The notes beneath the pieces are model-generated. The model worked only from the letters and a program-made list of their open reading frames with translations. It did not search any database and had not been told where the DNA came from. Made by a program: the position numbers and the translations under genes. A stretch of DNA of 38,730 nt from assembly GCA_964408725.1 (NCBI GenBank), contig CAYPAN010000002.1, forward strand, positions 1 through 38,730, given 5' to 3'. This document shows, in pieces, positions 2,382-18,189 of the stretch. This stretch comes from an uncultured Candidatus Saccharibacteria bacterium (lineage in GTDB: Bacteria; Patescibacteriota; Minisyncoccia; Phycocordibacterales; UBA9973). Each line of letters opens with the position of its first letter. The stretch's first letter is position 1.

Positions 2382-2455
2382 TCCGCCCTCTACGATTCGA
2401 ACGTAGGACCCTCGAGGTATAAGCTCGATGCTCTAACCAACTGAGCTAAGGGCGG
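2382..2455 (-). tRNA. tRNA-Ile with anticodon UAU (reads AUA); CCA not encoded
   Basis: Hand-folded cloverleaf on the minus strand: acceptor CCGCCCT/AGGGCGG, D-arm GCTC-AGTTGGTTA-GAGC, anticodon arm TCGAG-CTTATAC-CTCGA, variable GGGTC, T-arm CTACG-TTCGAAT-CGTAG, discriminator A. Confidence 0.85.
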
Positions 2456-7485: not shown

Positions 7486-7830
7486 ATGACCAGAGTAAAA
7501 AAGGGAGTACATGCGTTAAAAAGAAGGAGAAGCGTGTTAAAGCAAACAAAAGGTTTTCGCCACGGCCGAAGCACGAAAGAACGGCAGGCCAAAGAAGCGC
7601 TTTTGCACGCGGGCAATTATTCTTTCGCCCACAGAAAAGACAAGAAGTCGCACAACAGGAAACTCTGGAATATTAAAATAAACGCGCTCTCCCGCGAATT
7701 AGGCACGTCTTATTCCAGGTTTATAGATAGTCTGAAAAAGAAAGGAGTATTGCTTGACCGCAAAATCCTAGCCGACTTGGCAGAAAATCATCCGTCAGTT
7801 TTTGCCAAAGTTTTAGAAAGCGTAAAATAA
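7486..7830 (+). CDS. rplT: 50S ribosomal protein L20
   Basis: The translation (MTRVKKGVHALKRRRSVLKQTKGFRHGRS) fits L20. Confidence 0.93.
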   Translation: MTRVKKGVHALKRRRSVLKQTKGFRHGRSTKERQAKEALLHAGNYSFAHRKDKKSHNRKLWNIKINALSRELGTSYSRFIDSLKKKGVLLDRKILADLAENHPSVFAKVLESVK

Positions 7831-7832
7831 AT

Positions 7833-7858
7833 AAAAATCCCCTACAAGGGGATTTTTA
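7833..7858. terminator. Bidirectional intrinsic terminator between rplT and the LOG-like gene
   Basis: Stem atcccc (7837-7842) / ggggat (7848-7853), loop tacaa, flanked by an A-run and a T-run, so it reads as hairpin plus U-tract on both strands. Confidence 0.8.
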
Positions 7859-8452
7859 TTTATTACTCTCATCTATTTTGTATTTTTTAACGAGAGTTAT
7901 CGTATCTGACACGAGCTTCTTCACATTATCACCGCTGATAATCTTGTCATTCGGGCGGTGAGCTTTGGAAATTATATCCTCCAACTCCGCGCTAGTTTCC
8001 CAAGGTCCTTTCAAAATACCTATCGGCTTGCCGTCTTCAAAAGCGACGGTAAACTCGTGTATCGTGCCTATGCGCCCGCAACCAAGTATCACGGCATCGG
8101 AAGAACGGGTAAGAAGCAAGTCCCGTCCCGGATAGCCGAAACCGGTATAAATAATCAAATCCATATAATCAATGGGAAGTTTGTAAACTTCCACATGTTC
8201 TTTTTCGGATGCTGCCGGAGAAAAACCGATTGATATTCCGTCCTCTTCCTTGGCTCCCATAGCCGCCCAAAAAGGGAAACCAGTAGTAGCACCCGTGACC
8301 AAGACCGCTCCTTGGCGGGCTATTTCACGTCCAAGTTCTTTTGCTATTTCCAAAGTACCCGGTCCGCTGTTAGTGGTATCTGCCGCACCGGAAACACATA
8401 TTTTTATTTGGTTATGCCCGTGTTTATTGTAAGGGTTTGAAACGATATCCAT
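7856..8452 (-). CDS. SLOG/LOG-like Rossmann-fold protein (TIGR00725-like)
   Basis: The translation has the LOG-family layout: ICVSGAAD ... GAVLVTGATTG ... SDAVILGCGRIGTIHEF (the PGGxGTxxE-like motif). Confidence 0.65.
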   Translation of the reverse strand: MDIVSNPYNKHGHNQIKICVSGAADTTNSGPGTLEIAKELGREIARQGAVLVTGATTGFPFWAAMGAKEEDGISIGFSPAASEKEHVEVYKLPIDYMDLIIYTGFGYPGRDLLLTRSSDAVILGCGRIGTIHEFTVAFEDGKPIGILKGPWETSAELEDIISKAHRPNDKIISGDNVKKLVSDTITLVKKYKIDESNK

Positions 8453-8489: not shown

Positions 8490-9854
8490 TTAAAAAGTAA
8501 GCAAGACACTCTCTCCTTCTTTGGGAGCAGACGCATCAAGTCCCAGATTATCTTTAATCCTTTGCACTAAAAACATTTCTGATTTTGGCTCACCCATAAC
8601 CACAAAAATTTTTTTGACTGTGTCTTCCGTATCTTCCACAAAATGAAACAACCCATCTGCATCTTTATGCCCTGAATATCCTAAAATAGTCGCCACGTGG
8701 GCTTTTACATCCACGTCCTCACCGTTGATACGCACTTTTTTTGCTCCTTCTTCTATCATACGCCCCAAAGTACCCGGAGATTGATACCCGGTCAAAAGAA
8801 TAGTATTGTTTGGGTCAGGCAAATAATGCTTCTCATGATGCACTATGCGTCCTCCGGAAGACATACCCGAGCCGGCAATAACTATCTTTGGATTAGGTGC
8901 ATCGTTTATCAATTTTGATTCCTCCGACTGTAGGGTGGAATGAAGCCCAGGGAAATCAAACAAATACTTGTCTTTGGACAATACTTTTTGGGCATTCTCA
9001 TTGAAATACTCCCTGAACTGTTTAAAAATTTCAGTCAAACGTATAGCAAGAGGAGAATCAAAAAAAATGGGCATCACAGGTATGCGGCTATTCTCTACCA
9101 AATTATTAAGCTCAAACAGAAGTTCCTGTGAACGTTCTAGTGAAAAGGTGGGTATGATTAATGTCCCCTTTCTTTTATAATTATCTTCTATCACTTCTTC
9201 CAAGAGTTTCCTGCGGTCATTTCTGGATTCGTGATTCCTGTCTCCGTAGACGGATTCCATAATTAAATAATAAGCATCCGTTATTTTTTCAGTATCCGGC
9301 AGTAATGGCGACGGTGAATTACCCAAGTCACCGGTAAAAATAATTTTTTTGCCGTTGTAAATAAACTCAACTATAGCTGAGCCCAAAATATGCCCGGCAT
9401 CTCTGAAAAAAACTTCCAGGTTAGAAGTTATGTTTATTTTTTGGTGGTAATCAAAACCAGTCCAGTTTAAAAAAGATTTTTTTATATTTTCTTCAGAATA
9501 TATTTTATCCAGATTAAATTGTTTATTTTTGGATAGAATGCTGGCAGTGTCTTCAAGCATCGGACCCGTAAGGGCACGAGTGGGTCTGGTGGAGTAAATT
9601 TTTCCGTTAAAACCTTCGCTTATTAGTTTCGGAATCTTGCCGATATGGTCCACATGGGCATGGGTTATAAAAAGGATATCTATTTCTTTCGGGTTATAAA
9701 TAAAAGGCAGCCAGTTAACATCATCCGCTATTTCCTTGCCTTGAGTAAGACCGCAATCAACCAATATCTTTTTACCATCAATTTCCAGAAGAAAATTGGC
9801 GCCTGTGACCGAGCCCGCTCCGCCACAAAATGTTATTTTAGCAGTATTTGACAT
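8490..9854 (-). CDS. Metallo-beta-lactamase fold beta-CASP nuclease (CPSF73 / RNase J-like)
   Basis: MBL motifs HAHVDH, DAGHILGS and TGDLG, plus beta-CASP motifs ESVYGDRNH, IVHH and GYSGHKD. Confidence 0.85.
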   Translation of the reverse strand: MSNTAKITFCGGAGSVTGANFLLEIDGKKILVDCGLTQGKEIADDVNWLPFIYNPKEIDILFITHAHVDHIGKIPKLISEGFNGKIYSTRPTRALTGPMLEDTASILSKNKQFNLDKIYSEENIKKSFLNWTGFDYHQKINITSNLEVFFRDAGHILGSAIVEFIYNGKKIIFTGDLGNSPSPLLPDTEKITDAYYLIMESVYGDRNHESRNDRRKLLEEVIEDNYKRKGTLIIPTFSLERSQELLFELNNLVENSRIPVMPIFFDSPLAIRLTEIFKQFREYFNENAQKVLSKDKYLFDFPGLHSTLQSEESKLINDAPNPKIVIAGSGMSSGGRIVHHEKHYLPDPNNTILLTGYQSPGTLGRMIEEGAKKVRINGEDVDVKAHVATILGYSGHKDADGLFHFVEDTEDTVKKIFVVMGEPKSEMFLVQRIKDNLGLDASAPKEGESVLLTF

Positions 9855-9858
9855 TACT

Positions 9859-10257
9859 TTATTGTACTATGTTTTCTTTAATATATATAGTTCGCCTGAT
9901 AAAATATAATATAGCAAATAGTCCGCCGGCAAGGTCAAAACATATATCGGAGAGAGTATCTAAGGAATTAAAAGGGTCTTGAATCGTAAATTTATTAACC
10001 AGAATTTCAAATAATTCCCAGCCTACTCCAACAAGTAACACGATAAAAAATATTTTAAAAATTGACTTAAGAGAATAATCTTTGAGCGGAAATAAATAAA
10101 TAGCGGAAAGACCGAGCCAGACTCCACCCAAGAAATGCATCGGCATATCAAAGTACCAAATTGACGAATACCAATAAAACCTCATTGCTAAATAATTCAG
10201 TATAAATATGAAGAAAATAAGCAAAACCAAACGTGTTAAAAGTTTCTTGGAATCCAT
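9859..10257 (-). CDS. Hypothetical integral membrane protein (about 4 TM, 132 aa)
   Basis: Four hydrophobic segments with conserved-looking polar residues (DMPMHFLGG, WELFE, DTLSD..D). Family not recognised. First gene of the 3-gene operon that ends at the 7833-7858 terminator. Confidence 0.6.
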   Translation of the reverse strand: MDSKKLLTRLVLLIFFIFILNYLAMRFYWYSSIWYFDMPMHFLGGVWLGLSAIYLFPLKDYSLKSIFKIFFIVLLVGVGWELFEILVNKFTIQDPFNSLDTLSDICFDLAGGLFAILYFIRRTIYIKENIVQ

Positions 10258-10263
10258 ATAAGC

Positions 10264-10269
10264 ATTATA
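10264..10269 (-). promoter_or_regulatory. Perfect TATAAT hexamer 6 nt upstream of the ATG of the 4-TM protein gene
   Basis: Minus strand reads TATAATgcttatATG. No good -35 was seen. Confidence 0.3.
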
Positions 10270-10280
10270 CGCTTTTCAAG

Positions 10281-10305
10281 AAAAAATCTCCGCCCTAGGT
10301 GGAGA
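10281..10305 (-). terminator. Intrinsic terminator closing the candidate RNA unit
   Basis: Minus strand reads tctccacc-tag-ggcggaga (7 bp with one mismatch), followed by TTTTTT. Confidence 0.6.
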
Positions 10306-10440
10306 AACTTTCTTAGGGTTATTTCCGATGTATTACCATAGCTTAAAGCTAAGTGGGTACCAGACGTGTGAGACCAAGGTCAAACTCGATCGAGGCTCCC
10401 ATAAAATAGTGTTCTAGGTAATAATCGGAAATAACCCTAC
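10281..10440 (-). ncRNA. Candidate structured RNA of unassigned family (stand-alone sRNA, or a leader of the downstream operon)
   Basis: A perfect 16-bp helix (10314-10329 with 10424-10439) is extended by a 7-bp helix (10331-10337 / 10417-10423) and a 3-bp helix (10339-10341 / 10414-10416), giving about 26 bp. This encloses a roughly 70-nt interior with small hairpins. It is flanked by a promoter (10445-10472) and a terminator (10281-10305) on the minus strand. Confidence 0.5.
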
Positions 10441-10444
10441 TAAA

Positions 10445-10472
10445 AGTATAGCAAAGGCTATAGTGTTAGCAA
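10445..10472 (-). promoter_or_regulatory. Candidate promoter of the structured RNA
   Basis: Minus strand reads TTGCTA (10472-10467), a 16-nt spacer ending in TGc, then TATACT (10450-10445). The predicted TSS falls at the first base pairs of the long helix. Confidence 0.55.
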
Positions 10473-10502: not shown

Positions 10503-11087
10503 TTATTCATCCACTCCGAAACGTTTATATTCGAAAGTTTTTGCGTTGCCGAACCAATGTTTAATCTCATGTTCTGCTTCTTCGGGAGTTTCGGAACAGT
10601 GCACTATATTCATTACCGCTCTTTTCTCTTTATTGGCAAGCGCAGGAGAATCTATTGAAAAATCTCCGCGAATCGTGCCCATATCCGCCTTGTAAGGCAT
10701 AGTCTCACCGGCAATTTTTCGTACTACGTCCACCGAGTGTACACCCTGCACAATCATCTTCACCAACGGAGCGCTCATCATATAATTCACCAGCCATTTA
10801 CGTATATCCGGACCGATTTTATGAGCTTCCATGGTGCCAAAATCAGCCATAGCATCATATCCATATTTCTCATAAGTGCTCAATGTCTTATGCCCAAGTC
10901 TGGTAATCCACTCTTCATTTTTCGGATAATGGTTATCAATCTCTTCATAAGTCGGTTGAAACATCTCAAGTGCCACGATTTTCAAATCACGTTGCTCAAA
11001 ACGCTTTATAATCTCACCCGTGAGGCCTTTGCGGACTCCGTCCGGCTTTATCATCACGTATGTCTGTTCTTCTTTTGGATGTTTCAT
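10503..11087 (-). CDS. ndk: Nucleoside-diphosphate kinase, long variant with an internal insertion
   Basis: The translation has YVMIKPDGV, TIRGDF and NIVHCSE (catalytic His context). At 194 aa it exceeds the usual roughly 140-150 aa, owing to an insertion after the HY motif. Confidence 0.85.
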   Translation of the reverse strand: MKHPKEEQTYVMIKPDGVRKGLTGEIIKRFEQRDLKIVALEMFQPTYEEIDNHYPKNEEWITRLGHKTLSTYEKYGYDAMADFGTMEAHKIGPDIRKWLVNYMMSAPLVKMIVQGVHSVDVVRKIAGETMPYKADMGTIRGDFSIDSPALANKEKRAVMNIVHCSETPEEAEHEIKHWFGNAKTFEYKRFGVDE

Positions 11088-11467: not shown

Positions 11468-14227
11468 CTACTCCATTGTTTTATATCTTCCCATAATTTC
11501 CGCTTCCACTTCGGCGCGGTCGCGACCATACTTCATATATGAAAGTTGTTTCAAGCTGTCCACAATTTCTTTATTACCCTCTTCCGGCGGCAATGTTTTT
11601 ATATTAAAAGGTTTTATCGGCTGGCCATTTACTAACATACTCATATAGGCATTGTAATTATCCAATTTAGTTATATCAGCCGCATTGAATATAGGTTTGA
11701 ATTTAGGCTCCAGAAAAGCGGCGTCTTCAGTGCCCACGCGGAACACCGCCATTGAACCGACGTTTCCGAAAACTGCATTTTTTATATTTTCTTCCAATTG
11801 GGTGATATATTGATGGGCAATGTTTAAAGACAGTCTGTATTTTCTGGCTTCGGAAAGAATGGAGGCAATAGAATCAGTCGTGACATTTTGGAATTCATCT
11901 ATATACAGATAAAAATCGTTTATGGGTTTACCAAACATATCCACGCGCGAGAGCGCCGCCATTTGTATCTTGCCCACCAGCACAAGACCGATTAAATTCG
12001 CGTTGATATCACCCAATCTGCCCTTTGAAAGGTTCACCAGCAGAATTTTTTTCTCGTCCATTATCTTCCTGAAATTGAAAACGGAATTTTGCTGCAGCAC
12101 TACCGGGCGCATAATATCGTTACTGATAAAATTATCGAATTTTGAAGAAATATACGGCACGAAGTTCGCCAGGGATTGGTCGCCGGTAGTTTGTTCAGCT
12201 GAAACCCAAAATTGCTTGATAATGGGGTTCTTACAGCGGGCCAATTTCATATCGCGGAATTCTTTATCCGCCAAAACTCTGGTGATTTCAAGTAAGGTTG
12301 ACCCTGATTCCGGGTCTTCCATCACGAGAAATGCGGAGTTTCTAAAGTATTGTTCAAACATTGCCCCGCCTCCGATTTTCATATCAAAAAGTTTGTTAAA
12401 GATACCCATCATCTCGTTGACCACAAAAGTTTTCTGCTCCGGATATTTCGGGTCGTATTCCAGCATATTGAGTCCCATCGGCCGCATAGTGTAAGCCGGG
12501 TCAAAATATATCACATCATCCACACGCTCTTTAGGAATGCGCGATAAAATGGTCTGAATATCCGTGCCGTGCGGGTCAATATAACAGCAGCCGTCGCCAT
12601 TCCTTATATCCTGGGTAATCATATTGAGCATAATATTAGTCTTACCCGTTCCAGTCTGACCAATGACATAAAAATGTCTCATACGGTCTTCGCGCGACAT
12701 ATGAATCATAGTATCTTTCCCTCTATAACTATTTACTCCCAAAATTATTCCCTCCTGCCCAACTTCTATCGGGACCGGGGCAATGCCTGCTTTGGCTTCT
12801 TTCAATTGCGGCTGGCTGCCGATTCCCACCGGGAAATGAAACACGGAAGAAAGCTCTTTTAAGTTCATTGGCAAAATTCTATCGTTTGAAAATATCCTGT
12901 AAGAAAAGTCGTGAAAAAGTTTTTTTAAGTCACTGCCATAAACCTTTTCAAAAACAAAAGAGTTGCTGGCAGATTCGGTAAACTGATTAAAAGAAGACTC
13001 TATTTCGCTTAAAATATCCTCCGCCCTTTCTTTTGTTAAAGCGGAAGTAATGACGCGGATGTTGGCTTTCATAATAGTGCTTTTCATCTTATTGCCTATT
13101 TTCTCCACTGCTCCTTCATCCACTGCTGTTCTGCCTTTTGTGTATTTCTCTTTGGTTTCTTCTTTCTTCTTGGCGCCAAAAATAAATTCTTTGGAGGCTT
13201 TCAAAAACGCCCTGTTGAATTTATAAAAATTATCCGCCGCATTTTTAACCGACATTCCGTTCTTAACATCGTCCAAAATCAGATGGAATTCATCGATAAA
13301 CTTCGTGCCAGCCGGAGCTACGACAAGCTGAATGGCCGCGCCCTCTCCTTTCGTTTTTAGCTTGGAAAAAACATTCAATATTATATTCATAGGGTCATGC
13401 TCAATATTGTCGTAGGTCTTAATAGGTAATACAGAACGCTCGGAAAAAGTCGCATAAGCGCCGGCCGAACCGCCCAATTCATTGAAAACATTATAGTCGT
13501 CTTCCACTTCGTGAACTTTCGCATCGTGATAAAAAGAAAGCACTTGTTTTTCAAAAAGTGAGATATGTTTGTTGGGCACCGCGGCGAAAATAATCACTTC
13601 ATCGGAATCATTTGAGAGCGCCACTTCCAGGGCAAAATAATTTTCTTTTTCATTATTTTCTCCTTCCGATATTGACTGCATACCGGCGTAAAATTGCTCC
13701 ATCGCGCCGATAAATTCTTTAAAACCTTTCTGTTTATCGGCCTCTTCCTGCGGCGGGGGAAGAGTTATTTCAAAAAGAGTCATATTGAAAGATTTGTAAA
13801 GAGGCGTTCCTTCTTTAAGGTCAAATATCTTTCCAGTTTTTAGATATTGAATCAGCACCCTGTGAAAGTCATCATCTATGTGCGGATTCCCCATTGCTTC
13901 CACCACGGACAATGCGTTACGAATTCCCTTGGTGACCACGACGCCCAAAAGTTCTTCCATTACTTTATCGTGCGCTTCGGGTTTTAATCTTAAAACAATG
14001 GCCTCGGATTCGTTTTTAGTTATAAGGTTATTCTTGTGTATAACCTCTTCCAAAGGCTTTTCTTTATATTCTTTTATAATTCCACTAGCCGCATTCTCTT
14101 GGGCATGTTCAAAATGTCCGGCGTTTATGAGTTCCGATTCCCGCTTGGCGACATGAGCGCGCAAATAATCCAGCTCCTCCTCCGGAGTCTTGAATTTTGG
14201 CATCTCATTTAAAAATGACCCTTCCAT
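11468..14227 (-). CDS. Large soluble P-loop NTPase, type IV coupling protein-like (VirD4/TraD/TraG, FtsK-HerA superfamily), with an uncharacterised N-terminal region of about 500 aa
   Basis: The C-terminal half has Walker A GQTGTGKT, Walker B LYIDEFQN, and ARKYRLSLNIAHQ. No hydrophobic TM segment is evident, and the N-terminal half has no motif I recognise. Confidence 0.6.
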   Translation of the reverse strand: MEGSFLNEMPKFKTPEEELDYLRAHVAKRESELINAGHFEHAQENAASGIIKEYKEKPLEEVIHKNNLITKNESEAIVLRLKPEAHDKVMEELLGVVVTKGIRNALSVVEAMGNPHIDDDFHRVLIQYLKTGKIFDLKEGTPLYKSFNMTLFEITLPPPQEEADKQKGFKEFIGAMEQFYAGMQSISEGENNEKENYFALEVALSNDSDEVIIFAAVPNKHISLFEKQVLSFYHDAKVHEVEDDYNVFNELGGSAGAYATFSERSVLPIKTYDNIEHDPMNIILNVFSKLKTKGEGAAIQLVVAPAGTKFIDEFHLILDDVKNGMSVKNAADNFYKFNRAFLKASKEFIFGAKKKEETKEKYTKGRTAVDEGAVEKIGNKMKSTIMKANIRVITSALTKERAEDILSEIESSFNQFTESASNSFVFEKVYGSDLKKLFHDFSYRIFSNDRILPMNLKELSSVFHFPVGIGSQPQLKEAKAGIAPVPIEVGQEGIILGVNSYRGKDTMIHMSREDRMRHFYVIGQTGTGKTNIMLNMITQDIRNGDGCCYIDPHGTDIQTILSRIPKERVDDVIYFDPAYTMRPMGLNMLEYDPKYPEQKTFVVNEMMGIFNKLFDMKIGGGAMFEQYFRNSAFLVMEDPESGSTLLEITRVLADKEFRDMKLARCKNPIIKQFWVSAEQTTGDQSLANFVPYISSKFDNFISNDIMRPVVLQQNSVFNFRKIMDEKKILLVNLSKGRLGDINANLIGLVLVGKIQMAALSRVDMFGKPINDFYLYIDEFQNVTTDSIASILSEARKYRLSLNIAHQYITQLEENIKNAVFGNVGSMAVFRVGTEDAAFLEPKFKPIFNAADITKLDNYNAYMSMLVNGQPIKPFNIKTLPPEEGNKEIVDSLKQLSYMKYGRDRAEVEAEIMGRYKTME

Positions 14228-16921: not shown

Positions 16922-18189
16922 TATTCCCTCATTGAAACTTGAGCATCTACTTTTTTTATTAGGTCAAGAACTACGGAAACAACTATGAGAAGAGCTGTAC
17001 CGCCCAAAGCGATAGCGGTGATGCCTGTAAGCGAACGAATGATAAGAGGCAAAACGGCAATGAAACCCAAGAATACCGCGCCCAAGAGTGTAATGCGACT
17101 TAGAACTTTTGAAATATATTGAGATGTGGACAACCCTGGACGAATGCCCGGAATAAATGCGCCATTTTTCTGCAAATTCACGGAAAGCGCTTCAGGGTCA
17201 AAGGTAACAGCCGTATAAAAGTAAGTGAAAAGAAATACCAAAATAAAATAAAGCACGGCATAAAGCACGCTAGTTTGTGAAAAAGACATAAGAATTTTAG
17301 AAATAGACAATAGAACTGCGTTGGAAGAACTTGCCAAAAAGTTGCCGATCATCTGCGGAAAGAGCAAAAGAGAAAGGGCAAAAATTATCGGTATAACTCC
17401 GGCTTGATTCACCCGAAGAGGCAGATAAGTGGAGCCACCGCCGTACATTTTCATTCCCCGGACACGCTTGGCATAAGTAACGGGGATAGGACGTTCCGCT
17501 TCTGTCACAACTACCACTCCGGCTATGACTAAAATACCCGCCGCTATAAACATCAGATAAAGAGGAATTTGAGAAACATCAAAAGTGAAAAGGAGCTGGC
17601 TTACTTCAGCCGGAATTCTGGAAACTATGCCGGCAAAAATTATCATAGATACTCCGTTGCCGATTCCGAATTCAGACATAAGCTCTCCTATCCACATCAG
17701 GAGCATTGAACCGGAAATAACAATAATCAAATCAGTAATGCGGTTAAAGACCGTCAAATTCCCCAAAATATTTTGACTTTGCAGAATGGCCAAAAGACTG
17801 AAGCCTTGAATGGCAGCCAAAGGAATAGTGAGCAATCTTGAATACTGGGTAAATTTCCTTCTGCCTGCTTCTCCCTCTTCATGATAAATTCTTTTCAAGG
17901 CGGGCACCATTATAGTCAAAAGCTGCATAATGATTGAGCTGGTGATATAAGGCCCGACACCCAGCATTATGATGGAAAGATTTGAAAGTCCTCCCCCGGA
18001 AAAGATGTTCAGGATACCGAAAAATTGGTTGTTGGTAAGAAAACGATTGAGTTCCAATGTATCAATGCCAGGTATAGGAATAGCAGAAAGCAGTCTAAAA
18101 ATTACCAAGGCAAAGAGCACAAACAGCACTCTCTTTCGTAGAACAGTGTCGGTCCAGATCAATTTTATTTTATTCCAAAAGTTTTCCAT
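16918..18189 (-). CDS. secY: Preprotein translocase subunit SecY
   Basis: Ten-TM translation with typical SecY N-terminus and loops, at the conserved position after rplO. Confidence 0.95.
   Translation of the reverse strand: MENFWNKIKLIWTDTVLRKRVLFVLFALVIFRLLSAIPIPGIDTLELNRFLTNNQFFGILNIFSGGGLSNLSIIMLGVGPYITSSIIMQLLTIMVPALKRIYHEEGEAGRRKFTQYSRLLTIPLAAIQGFSLLAILQSQNILGNLTVFNRITDLIIVISGSMLLMWIGELMSEFGIGNGVSMIIFAGIVSRIPAEVSQLLFTFDVSQIPLYLMFIAAGILVIAGVVVVTEAERPIPVTYAKRVRGMKMYGGGSTYLPLRVNQAGVIPIIFALSLLLFPQMIGNFLASSSNAVLLSISKILMSFSQTSVLYAVLYFILVFLFTYFYTAVTFDPEALSVNLQKNGAFIPGIRPGLSTSQYISKVLSRITLLGAVFLGFIAVLPLIIRSLTGITAIALGGTALLIVVSVVLDLIKKVDAQVSMREY

Follow-up and report, generated by a model that had tools for sequence, protein, structure and literature searches.

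In the 38,730-nt stretch of DNA analysed here (the window), a putative gene for a small structured RNA lies on the minus strand between ndk, whose stop codon is at 10503 upstream of the RNA gene on the same strand, and the genes for a DUF2238 membrane protein (9859-10257, minus strand, directly downstream of the RNA gene) and a TTHA0252-like beta-CASP RNase (8490-9854, minus strand; PDB 3ie2, E 1.6e-83). In the related loci (L011-L170), a LOG/TIGR00725-like gene usually comes after the beta-CASP gene. In the window, a perfect 18-nt inverted repeat, AATAAATAAAAATCCCCT / AGGGGATTTTTATTTATT (7826-7864), is found between the LOG-like gene, the stop codon of which it overlaps, and the convergent L20 gene, and it looks like a two-way terminator. 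Upstream of ndk is the gene for a 919-aa DUF8128 protein with weak similarity to TraD/VirD4-type coupling ATPases (11468-14227, minus strand), and a conserved 122-aa protein of no known family is encoded between these two genes; the order of DUF8128 upstream of ndk is retained in most of the ndk-anchored loci described below. The Rfam families detected in the window are limited to a tmRNA gene (RF00023; 4481-4881, minus strand, 125 bits), which is another housekeeping RNA of this small genome, and a tRNA gene (2382-2455, minus strand, 67.5 bits), both of which are outside the present locus.

An earlier note, made from the window sequence, had described a promoter (TTGCTA-16-TGcTATACT) in front of this RNA and a hairpin plus U6 terminator 23 nt before the next ATG, and both are indeed present. 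A promoter scan placed the -35 box TTGCTA at 10467-10472 and the extended -10 box TGc-TATACT at 10445-10453 (TG at 10453-10452, TATACT at 10450-10445), on the minus strand and with a spacer of 16 nt in the window copy. The conserved 131-nt core of the RNA (10310-10440, minus strand) starts five nt past the -10 box, and the 5' end is predicted at about 10440-10438. The intrinsic terminator (10281-10305, minus strand) consists of the hairpin UCUCCACCUAGGGCGGAGA at 10305-10287 and U6 at 10286-10281, the end of which is 23 nt from the ATG at 10257 that opens the DUF2238 gene. These signals are shared by the relatives. A TAnnnT box, most frequently TATAAT or TATACT, is present in 113 of 116 homologues; it ends 3-5 nt ahead of RNA position 1 in 110 of them and 9 nt ahead in three others. 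In 87 homologues, the -10 box is preceded by TTG at a distance of 16-18 nt. BLAST homology among the relatives often opens at the -10 hexamer and stops at the foot of the closing helix, and the -35 TTGC is likewise conserved in the ndk-anchored loci. A terminator (hairpin and T5) occurs within 75 nt downstream in 85 of the 116 homologues, and its stem sequence varies from genome to genome.

The next gene has a promoter of its own (10257-10269, minus strand), in which TATAAT (10269-10264) is followed after 6 nt by the ATG at 10257. In most of about 60 related loci examined, a near-consensus -10 box is likewise found 6-9 nt before the downstream start codon. The mRNA of the DUF2238 gene thus looks leaderless, as judged from this spacing. 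The occurrence of a near-consensus TATAAT close to the start codon of the DUF2238 or beta-CASP gene in most of the loci L011-L090 suggests that leaderless mRNAs are routine in this lineage. Because the RNA gene has its own promoter and terminator and the downstream gene has its own -10 box, we regard the RNA gene as a separate transcription unit and not as the leader of the downstream genes.

The RNA is a rod with a closing stem of 24-26 bp, a central bubble and an apical stem. Folding of 10281-10445 (minus strand) gave -59.1 kcal/mol with z = -6.55, and none of 200 shuffled sequences equalled this value; the opposite strand folds well too, as expected of any long palindrome. The perfect 16-bp helix of 10439-10424 with 10329-10314, already reported in the earlier note, was found together with its extension as described there. 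The two arms of this helix (10424-10439 on the minus strand and 10314-10329 on the plus strand) are the only exact copies of the 16-mer TAGGGTTATTTCCGAT in the window, and its sole other match (17710-17725) has three mismatches, where 0.54 matches with at most three mismatches are expected by chance. The inverted repeat of the closing helix ranks among the longest in the window.

From the folds and covariation, the 5' strand of the closing ('downstream') helix was assigned to RNA positions 3-24 (10417-10438, minus strand), which UAG at 10416-10414 is able to lengthen. The 3' strand corresponds to positions 104-126 (10315-10337, minus strand), and the GG that opens it has an alternative partner in the CC or CU that precedes the hairpin of the 3' bubble. 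The consensus fold leaves the 5' strand of the central bubble, AACACUAUUUUAU (10401-10413, minus strand), unpaired. The 3' strand of the bubble (10338-10354, minus strand) is composed of ACU, the hairpin UAGCU-UUA-AGCUA (10351-10339) and a bulged U; a -10-like UAUAAG in the loop of this strand is not conserved and was dropped. The apical ('upstream') stem, GGG-A-GCC ... GGU-A-CCC (10355-10400, minus strand), was defined by covariation and contains a conserved UCGAUC/GUCU internal loop and a C(CUUG)G tetraloop at 10378-10375. The apical domain occurs in discrete size classes in several relatives (L021, L049, L072, L078-L085, L089; L119, L162), with the bubble and the closing helix unchanged: in one clade the 46-nt apical stem is swapped for a stem about 25 nt longer, and in a few members the whole RNA is longer still (179-182 nt). 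Another locus (L056, 3190-3259) has a direct duplication of about 33 nt in the RNA (TCGATCATGTTTGGCTTTGGCCTTTTATGTCTA twice), just short of the contig end, which is probably an assembly artefact.

Homologues were found in about 130 related Paceibacteria loci, with one copy in each. Among 80 loci of Nomurabacteria/Paceibacteria genomes anchored on ndk, about 70 contain the element as detected by BLAST. Fifty-one distinct homologues with a mean column identity of 80% were aligned (alignment A1), and the consensus fold was refined from this alignment and then tested over 44 pairs. In total, 94.3% of the cells are paired, vs 34-43% after a shift of the 3' partners by 1-3 columns, and double changes are seen in 19 pairs and 184 cells; none of 500 shuffles attained the observed values. 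Covariation in syntenic relatives, which the earlier note had named as a check, is thus strong (19 compensated pairs). The 21 pairs of the closing helix are 98% paired and four of them show a compensatory change, whereas such changes are found in 13 of the 18 pairs of the apical stem and in two of the five pairs of the 3' bubble hairpin, where AGAU/AUCU, AGCG/CGCU, AGUU/AACU and AAU/AUU are examples. The CC/GG and GGG/CCC pairs flanking the bubble are invariant or nearly so, as are, within the 5' bubble, A29 and C30 (invariant; C30 is 10411) and A31 (nearly so).

The same data bear on the smaller helices drawn in the earlier note. Covariation supports the UGGG/CCCA helix, the hairpin GAC-CUUG-GUC and, on the 3' side of the bubble, the hairpin UAGCUUUAAGCUA. 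It does not support the mini-hairpin CUC-GAUC-GAG, since relatives turn GAG into AUG, GUG or GGG with no compensation; UCGAUC instead pairs with GUCU across the stem, within one continuous apical stem. We also considered a small open reading frame of 17 codons (ATG at 10401-10399, TAG at 10350-10348) in this region. Its ATG is not conserved (UUAGGG, UUUGGG and AAGGG in relatives), and the substitutions track pairing and not codons.

A covariance model (R1) gave 150.1 bits for the window copy on the gene strand, vs 49.1 bits on the other strand. It detected one copy per locus, with gene-strand scores from 150 down to 25 bits and scores about 100 bits lower on the other strand. Furthermore, read from the opposite strand, the closing helix would have A-C mismatches in place of its G-U and U-G pairs. 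Because of this strand asymmetry and these pairs, the RNA is assigned to the gene strand; by these sequence criteria its orientation is that of ndk and of the operon downstream.

The more diverged copies (A4) define what is universal in the family. The closing helix drifts in sequence with compensation and is topped by UAUU(A/U)-YCUAG; it is followed by an A/U-rich unpaired 5' strand of 13-17 nt and then by GGGAG. The apical stem is variable, and its length is very variable. On the 3' side, CACCCACC, the hairpin UAGnn...nnCUAGG and the 3' strand of the closing helix follow in this order. A1 and A4 alike show little or no variation in GGGAG and CACCCAC(C/U)U.

6S RNA is a well-known bacterial RNA that mimics an open promoter to hold RNA polymerase. 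The earlier note had compared the element with stand-alone housekeeping RNAs, 6S-like or SRP-like, and had left the family unassigned as it did not find the conserved 6S motifs. An Rfam search, which it proposed, gave no match for the window copy at this locus either at the gathering score or at E ≤ 10. RF00013 (6S) was, however, the best or only Rfam match in three diverged members of the family, at the exact locus and on the exact strand (E-value mode): L102 scored 24.2 bits (E 0.0022) as the sole match at E ≤ 1, L119 scored 19.6 bits (E 0.03-0.04) over the whole model (positions 1-187), and L130 scored 17.5 bits, again exactly at the locus. Two further members (L162 and L132) had no 6S match in Rfam even at E ≤ 10, and the RF00013 gathering score of 46.4, which is Rfam's own threshold of membership, was reached by no member tested. 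In the cmscan alignments of the relatives, the family-invariant GGGAG and CACCCACCU lie on upper-case positions of the RF00013 consensus ('auaGGGagccc', 'ggcaCCCACCUgga...GGu'). RF00013 is also matched in these alignments by the 5' bubble, which is A/U-rich and 16 nt long, by the single A left unpaired behind GGG and ahead of CCC, and by the GG with which the downstream helix begins its 3' strand. Since the invariant motifs fall on the most conserved positions of the consensus, the sub-threshold matches are taken to be more than noise. GGGAG, CACCCACCU, the 3' bubble hairpin and the GG are top-conserved positions of RF00013, so that the motifs missed in the earlier note are present after all.

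We conclude from these sequence comparisons that the element is very probably a compact, divergent 6S RNA (ssrS) of a Paceibacteria (Nomurabacteria-like) bacterium, and that, of the options raised earlier, a 6S-like housekeeping RNA that stands alone between a promoter and a terminator of its own was the right one. Several features expected of a 6S RNA were found. The MFE folds, consensus folds and covariation give a rod with a large bubble and flanking G-C pairs; the core sequence has the A/U-rich 5' bubble, GGGag..., ...gcaCCCACCU and GG; and at the sequence level the gene is independent and single-copy (one match per locus) with its own promoter. The SRP-like option did not hold: the window copy has no match to an SRP family at E ≤ 10, and its apical loop is CUUG, whereas the loop of SRP domain IV is a GGAA-type tetraloop, which argues against a 4.5S RNA. 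When E. coli ssrS (L171) was searched with R1 with the filters off, only noise (at most 9 bits) was obtained; R1 is built from one clade and is too narrow, so that this miss says little. The sub-threshold or absent Rfam matches count against 6S, as do the size, with a core of 131 nt vs about 180 nt in typical 6S RNA and an apical stem of about 18-20 bp, the position of GG in the predicted product RNA (see below), and the near-absolute linkage to the beta-CASP operon, which is no known property of 6S RNA and makes another role possible.

This linkage was studied in a second set of 80 more diverse metagenomic loci anchored on the beta-CASP gene, whose proteins share 45-70% identity with the L054 (Zambryskiibacteria) protein heading the query alignment. 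In about 60 of these 80 loci, R1 placed the RNA upstream of the gene and in the same orientation, and a motif search recovered further, more diverged copies. When nhmmer profiles were applied to all 160 loci, 131 contained the beta-CASP gene with 750 nt or more of sequence in front of it, and the RNA was located within 1 kb upstream of the gene in 122 of the 131 and at 1.2-1.7 kb in three more, and the motif search added another three; the RNA copies with no beta-CASP gene downstream are all at contig ends. The RNA adjoins DUF2238 and beta-CASP upstream, or beta-CASP alone where DUF2238 was lost (the DUF2238 gene is between the RNA and beta-CASP in 84 of the loci L011-L170 and absent in others). 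The distance between ndk and the RNA ranges from about 60 nt to 2.3 kb across the loci; given this variable distance and the RNA's own promoter, a 3' untranslated region of ndk was rejected. Judged by gene order, the RNA gene is linked to the beta-CASP operon and not to ndk.

The linkage may be functional or may merely be inherited gene order. In B. subtilis, RNase J1, also a beta-CASP enzyme, matures and degrades the 6S RNAs (PMC10578484). One possible explanation is that in Paceibacteria the 6S gene belongs, together with the TTHA0252-like beta-CASP gene, to a conserved functional module, in which either the RNase would be a dedicated enzyme of 6S maturation and turnover, or transcription of the 6S gene and read-through from it would set the level of the RNase. 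We consider such a module, with both of its variants taken together, a tentative and rather unlikely proposal. If it is true, these minimal genomes would link the sequestration of polymerase with RNA decay.

A further-reaching explanation is that the RNA is dedicated to the neighbouring TTHA0252-like beta-CASP RNase as its substrate, decoy, adaptor or regulator, in a manner loosely analogous to a Y RNA and its exoribonuclease partner, and that its likeness to 6S is convergent or reflects a 6S descendant in a new role. The same-strand position within 1 kb in 122 of 131 loci, in spite of proteins only 45-70% identical, speaks for such a role, as do the persistence of the linkage after the loss of DUF2238, while the gap between ndk and the RNA gained insertions of up to 2.3 kb, and the location at a contig end of every copy that is not followed by a beta-CASP gene. 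Furthermore, at its base the closing helix has an invariant 5' strand but a variable partner strand. However, the conserved core is the 6S consensus and three members match RF00013, and the RNA has no single-stranded variable segment fit for a guide. Strong local synteny at the family level is usual among 6S genes (PMC8414754), and a link with an RNase is compatible with 6S, since RNase J1 processes the 6S RNAs of B. subtilis (PMC10578484). We thus find a dedicated RNA improbable.

Still less probable is a cis-acting leader, in which regulated read-through of the terminator would control the DUF2238 / beta-CASP / LOG operon. The order of promoter, structured RNA, terminator and operon is like that of an attenuator, the RNA keeps its place next to the operon, and conserved alternative helices exist at the bubble. 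However, these helices are distant from the terminator, the terminator stems differ freely, and no conserved antiterminator pairing with the RNA was seen among the relatives. In most loci, a near-consensus -10 box belonging to the downstream gene precedes its ATG by 6-9 nt, and the core matches 6S. The closing helix of 24-26 bp also far exceeds the known closing helices of riboswitches. Neither the mutually exclusive terminator and antiterminator pairing nor the promoterless regulated gene that characterize attenuators and riboswitches were found. Thus, of the leader or attenuator of the membrane / beta-CASP / LOG operon suggested in the earlier note, the linkage to the operon is supported and the leader role is not. 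Finally, a MITE-like mobile or repeated palindrome, or a chance inverted repeat, could be thought of from the long, nearly perfect inverted repeat, and is in effect already refuted by the sequences compared: the element is single-copy in the 38.7-kb window, so that it is no dispersed repeat, and in every locus, it occupies the same syntenic site in more than 120 genomes where many non-syntenic copies would be expected of a MITE, and compensatory changes keep its pairing with a clear strand asymmetry.

Returning to the 6S reading, we infer the following steps from what is established for the 6S RNAs of E. coli and B. subtilis. The RNA would be transcribed from its own sigma-70-type promoter and end at its own intrinsic terminator. 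The rod would mimic an open promoter and fill the active-site cleft of the housekeeping RNA polymerase holoenzyme, with the closing helix standing for the downstream DNA and the apical stem for the upstream DNA. When nucleotides are plentiful, the polymerase would use the 5' bubble strand as the template for a short product RNA, about 5'-GUUCUAGGUAAUAA, starting opposite the invariant C at 10411. This product RNA would then peel apart the top of the closing helix, and the freed 3' strand (CUA-U-GG) and the 3' bubble (CC/CU-UAG) could form a hairpin of 7-8 bp. The bubble would collapse and the RNA would be released.

The start site was predicted at C30 because a nearly invariant A follows it, by analogy with 6S RNAs, in which a conserved A immediately upstream of the start site has been reported (PMC8414754); C30-A31 fits the rule of an 'A just upstream of the start site'. 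In known product RNAs, GG is at positions 4/5 or 5/6 (PMC8414754), whereas the GG of the predicted product RNA is at positions 7/8, unlike the known cases, and the exact start site is therefore uncertain.

In E. coli-type 6S RNA, the product RNA unwinds the downstream helix, whose 3' strand can then form a 9-bp hairpin with the 3' bubble, and this drives release (PMC8876501). In the present RNA, one copy of CUAG tops the 5' strand, a second is found in the 3' bubble and a third tops the 3' strand, and this third copy is able to pair with either of the others; CCUAGnn of the bubble, nnCUAGG of the closing strand and CUAG of the 5' strand thus define mutually exclusive helices. In one relative (L062), all three segments co-vary (G to A, G to A and C to U) to give CUAA, CCUAAU and AUUAGG, and in another (L170) the three segments are likewise changed in concert. 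In MFE folds of the free RNA, the closing-helix pairing is used by 68 of 116 homologues. When 17 nt of the 5' strand are masked, as by a product RNA, a 3' hairpin of at least 5 bp forms in 102 of the 116. The evidence for a release hairpin of the 6S kind is structural, and by analogy the hairpin matches the E. coli-type mechanism.

6S RNA itself is a known kind of RNA and in this sense the element is ordinary. What is new here is the clade, the compact form (131-nt core and terminator) and the near-absolute linkage to the beta-CASP operon. A full-text search of a literature collection for a link of 6S RNA (ssrS) with lineages of the candidate phyla radiation found none. If the assignment is correct, 6S RNA would be added to the few housekeeping RNAs recognisable in the reduced genomes of this lineage. 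The Rfam 6S model misses this clade, and A1, A4 and R1 provide a basis for a clade-specific model. The compact form may also show the lower size bound of natural 6S RNA; truncated variants of B. subtilis 6S-1, which this form resembles, still work in vitro (PMC8876501). The beta-CASP linkage is the one feature that could possibly lead to something new.

Among the known systems, the element is most readily compared with E. coli-type 6S RNA (SsrS, RF00013). Both are encoded by a stand-alone gene with a sigma-70-type promoter and strong local synteny, and both are rods of a closing helix, a central bubble and an apical stem, with an A/U-rich 5' bubble strand of about 16 nt. GGG-A-G opens the apical stem and C-A-CCC-ACCU closes it in both, and E. 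coli 6S RNA has CACCUUGAACCAAGGGUUCAAGG at the place equivalent to the conserved 3' motif of the present family. In both, the 3' bubble can form a hairpin with the downstream helix's 3' strand, which involves CCUUGAACC/GGUUCAAGG in E. coli and CCUAGnn/nnCUAGG here. In contrast, E. coli 6S RNA is 183 nt long vs the 131-nt core here, and the RF00013 consensus has a large internal loop in the closing helix, whereas the helix here is almost continuous. The apical stem here is short and capped by a CUUG tetraloop, an intrinsic terminator is present and may remain on the RNA, and the neighbour is the beta-CASP RNase operon instead of ygfA/fau.

B. subtilis 6S-1 is about 190 nt long, and its product RNA begins with GUUC, as does the product predicted here. 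As in the present RNA, a small hairpin already exists in the 3' bubble of the free 6S-1 RNA (PMC8876501), and a beta-CASP RNase, RNase J1, takes part in the maturation and decay of 6S-1 and 6S-2 (PMC10578484), where a beta-CASP gene is the neighbour here. However, 6S-1 has its ends processed by 5' maturation and 3' trimming (PMC10578484), and it is released via a 'central bubble collapse helix' formed by the 5' bubble with the 3' strand of P2 (PMC8876501). Unlike in 6S-1, it seems to be the E. coli-type extension of the 3' hairpin that is the conserved alternative here.

The actinobacterial Ms1 RNA is much longer and is not known to contain the 6S core, the motifs of which are retained in the present RNA. 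Like the present RNA, it is a 6S-like rod that was missed by standard 6S models and found via synteny, whereas it binds the core polymerase and not the holoenzyme (PMC9130861).
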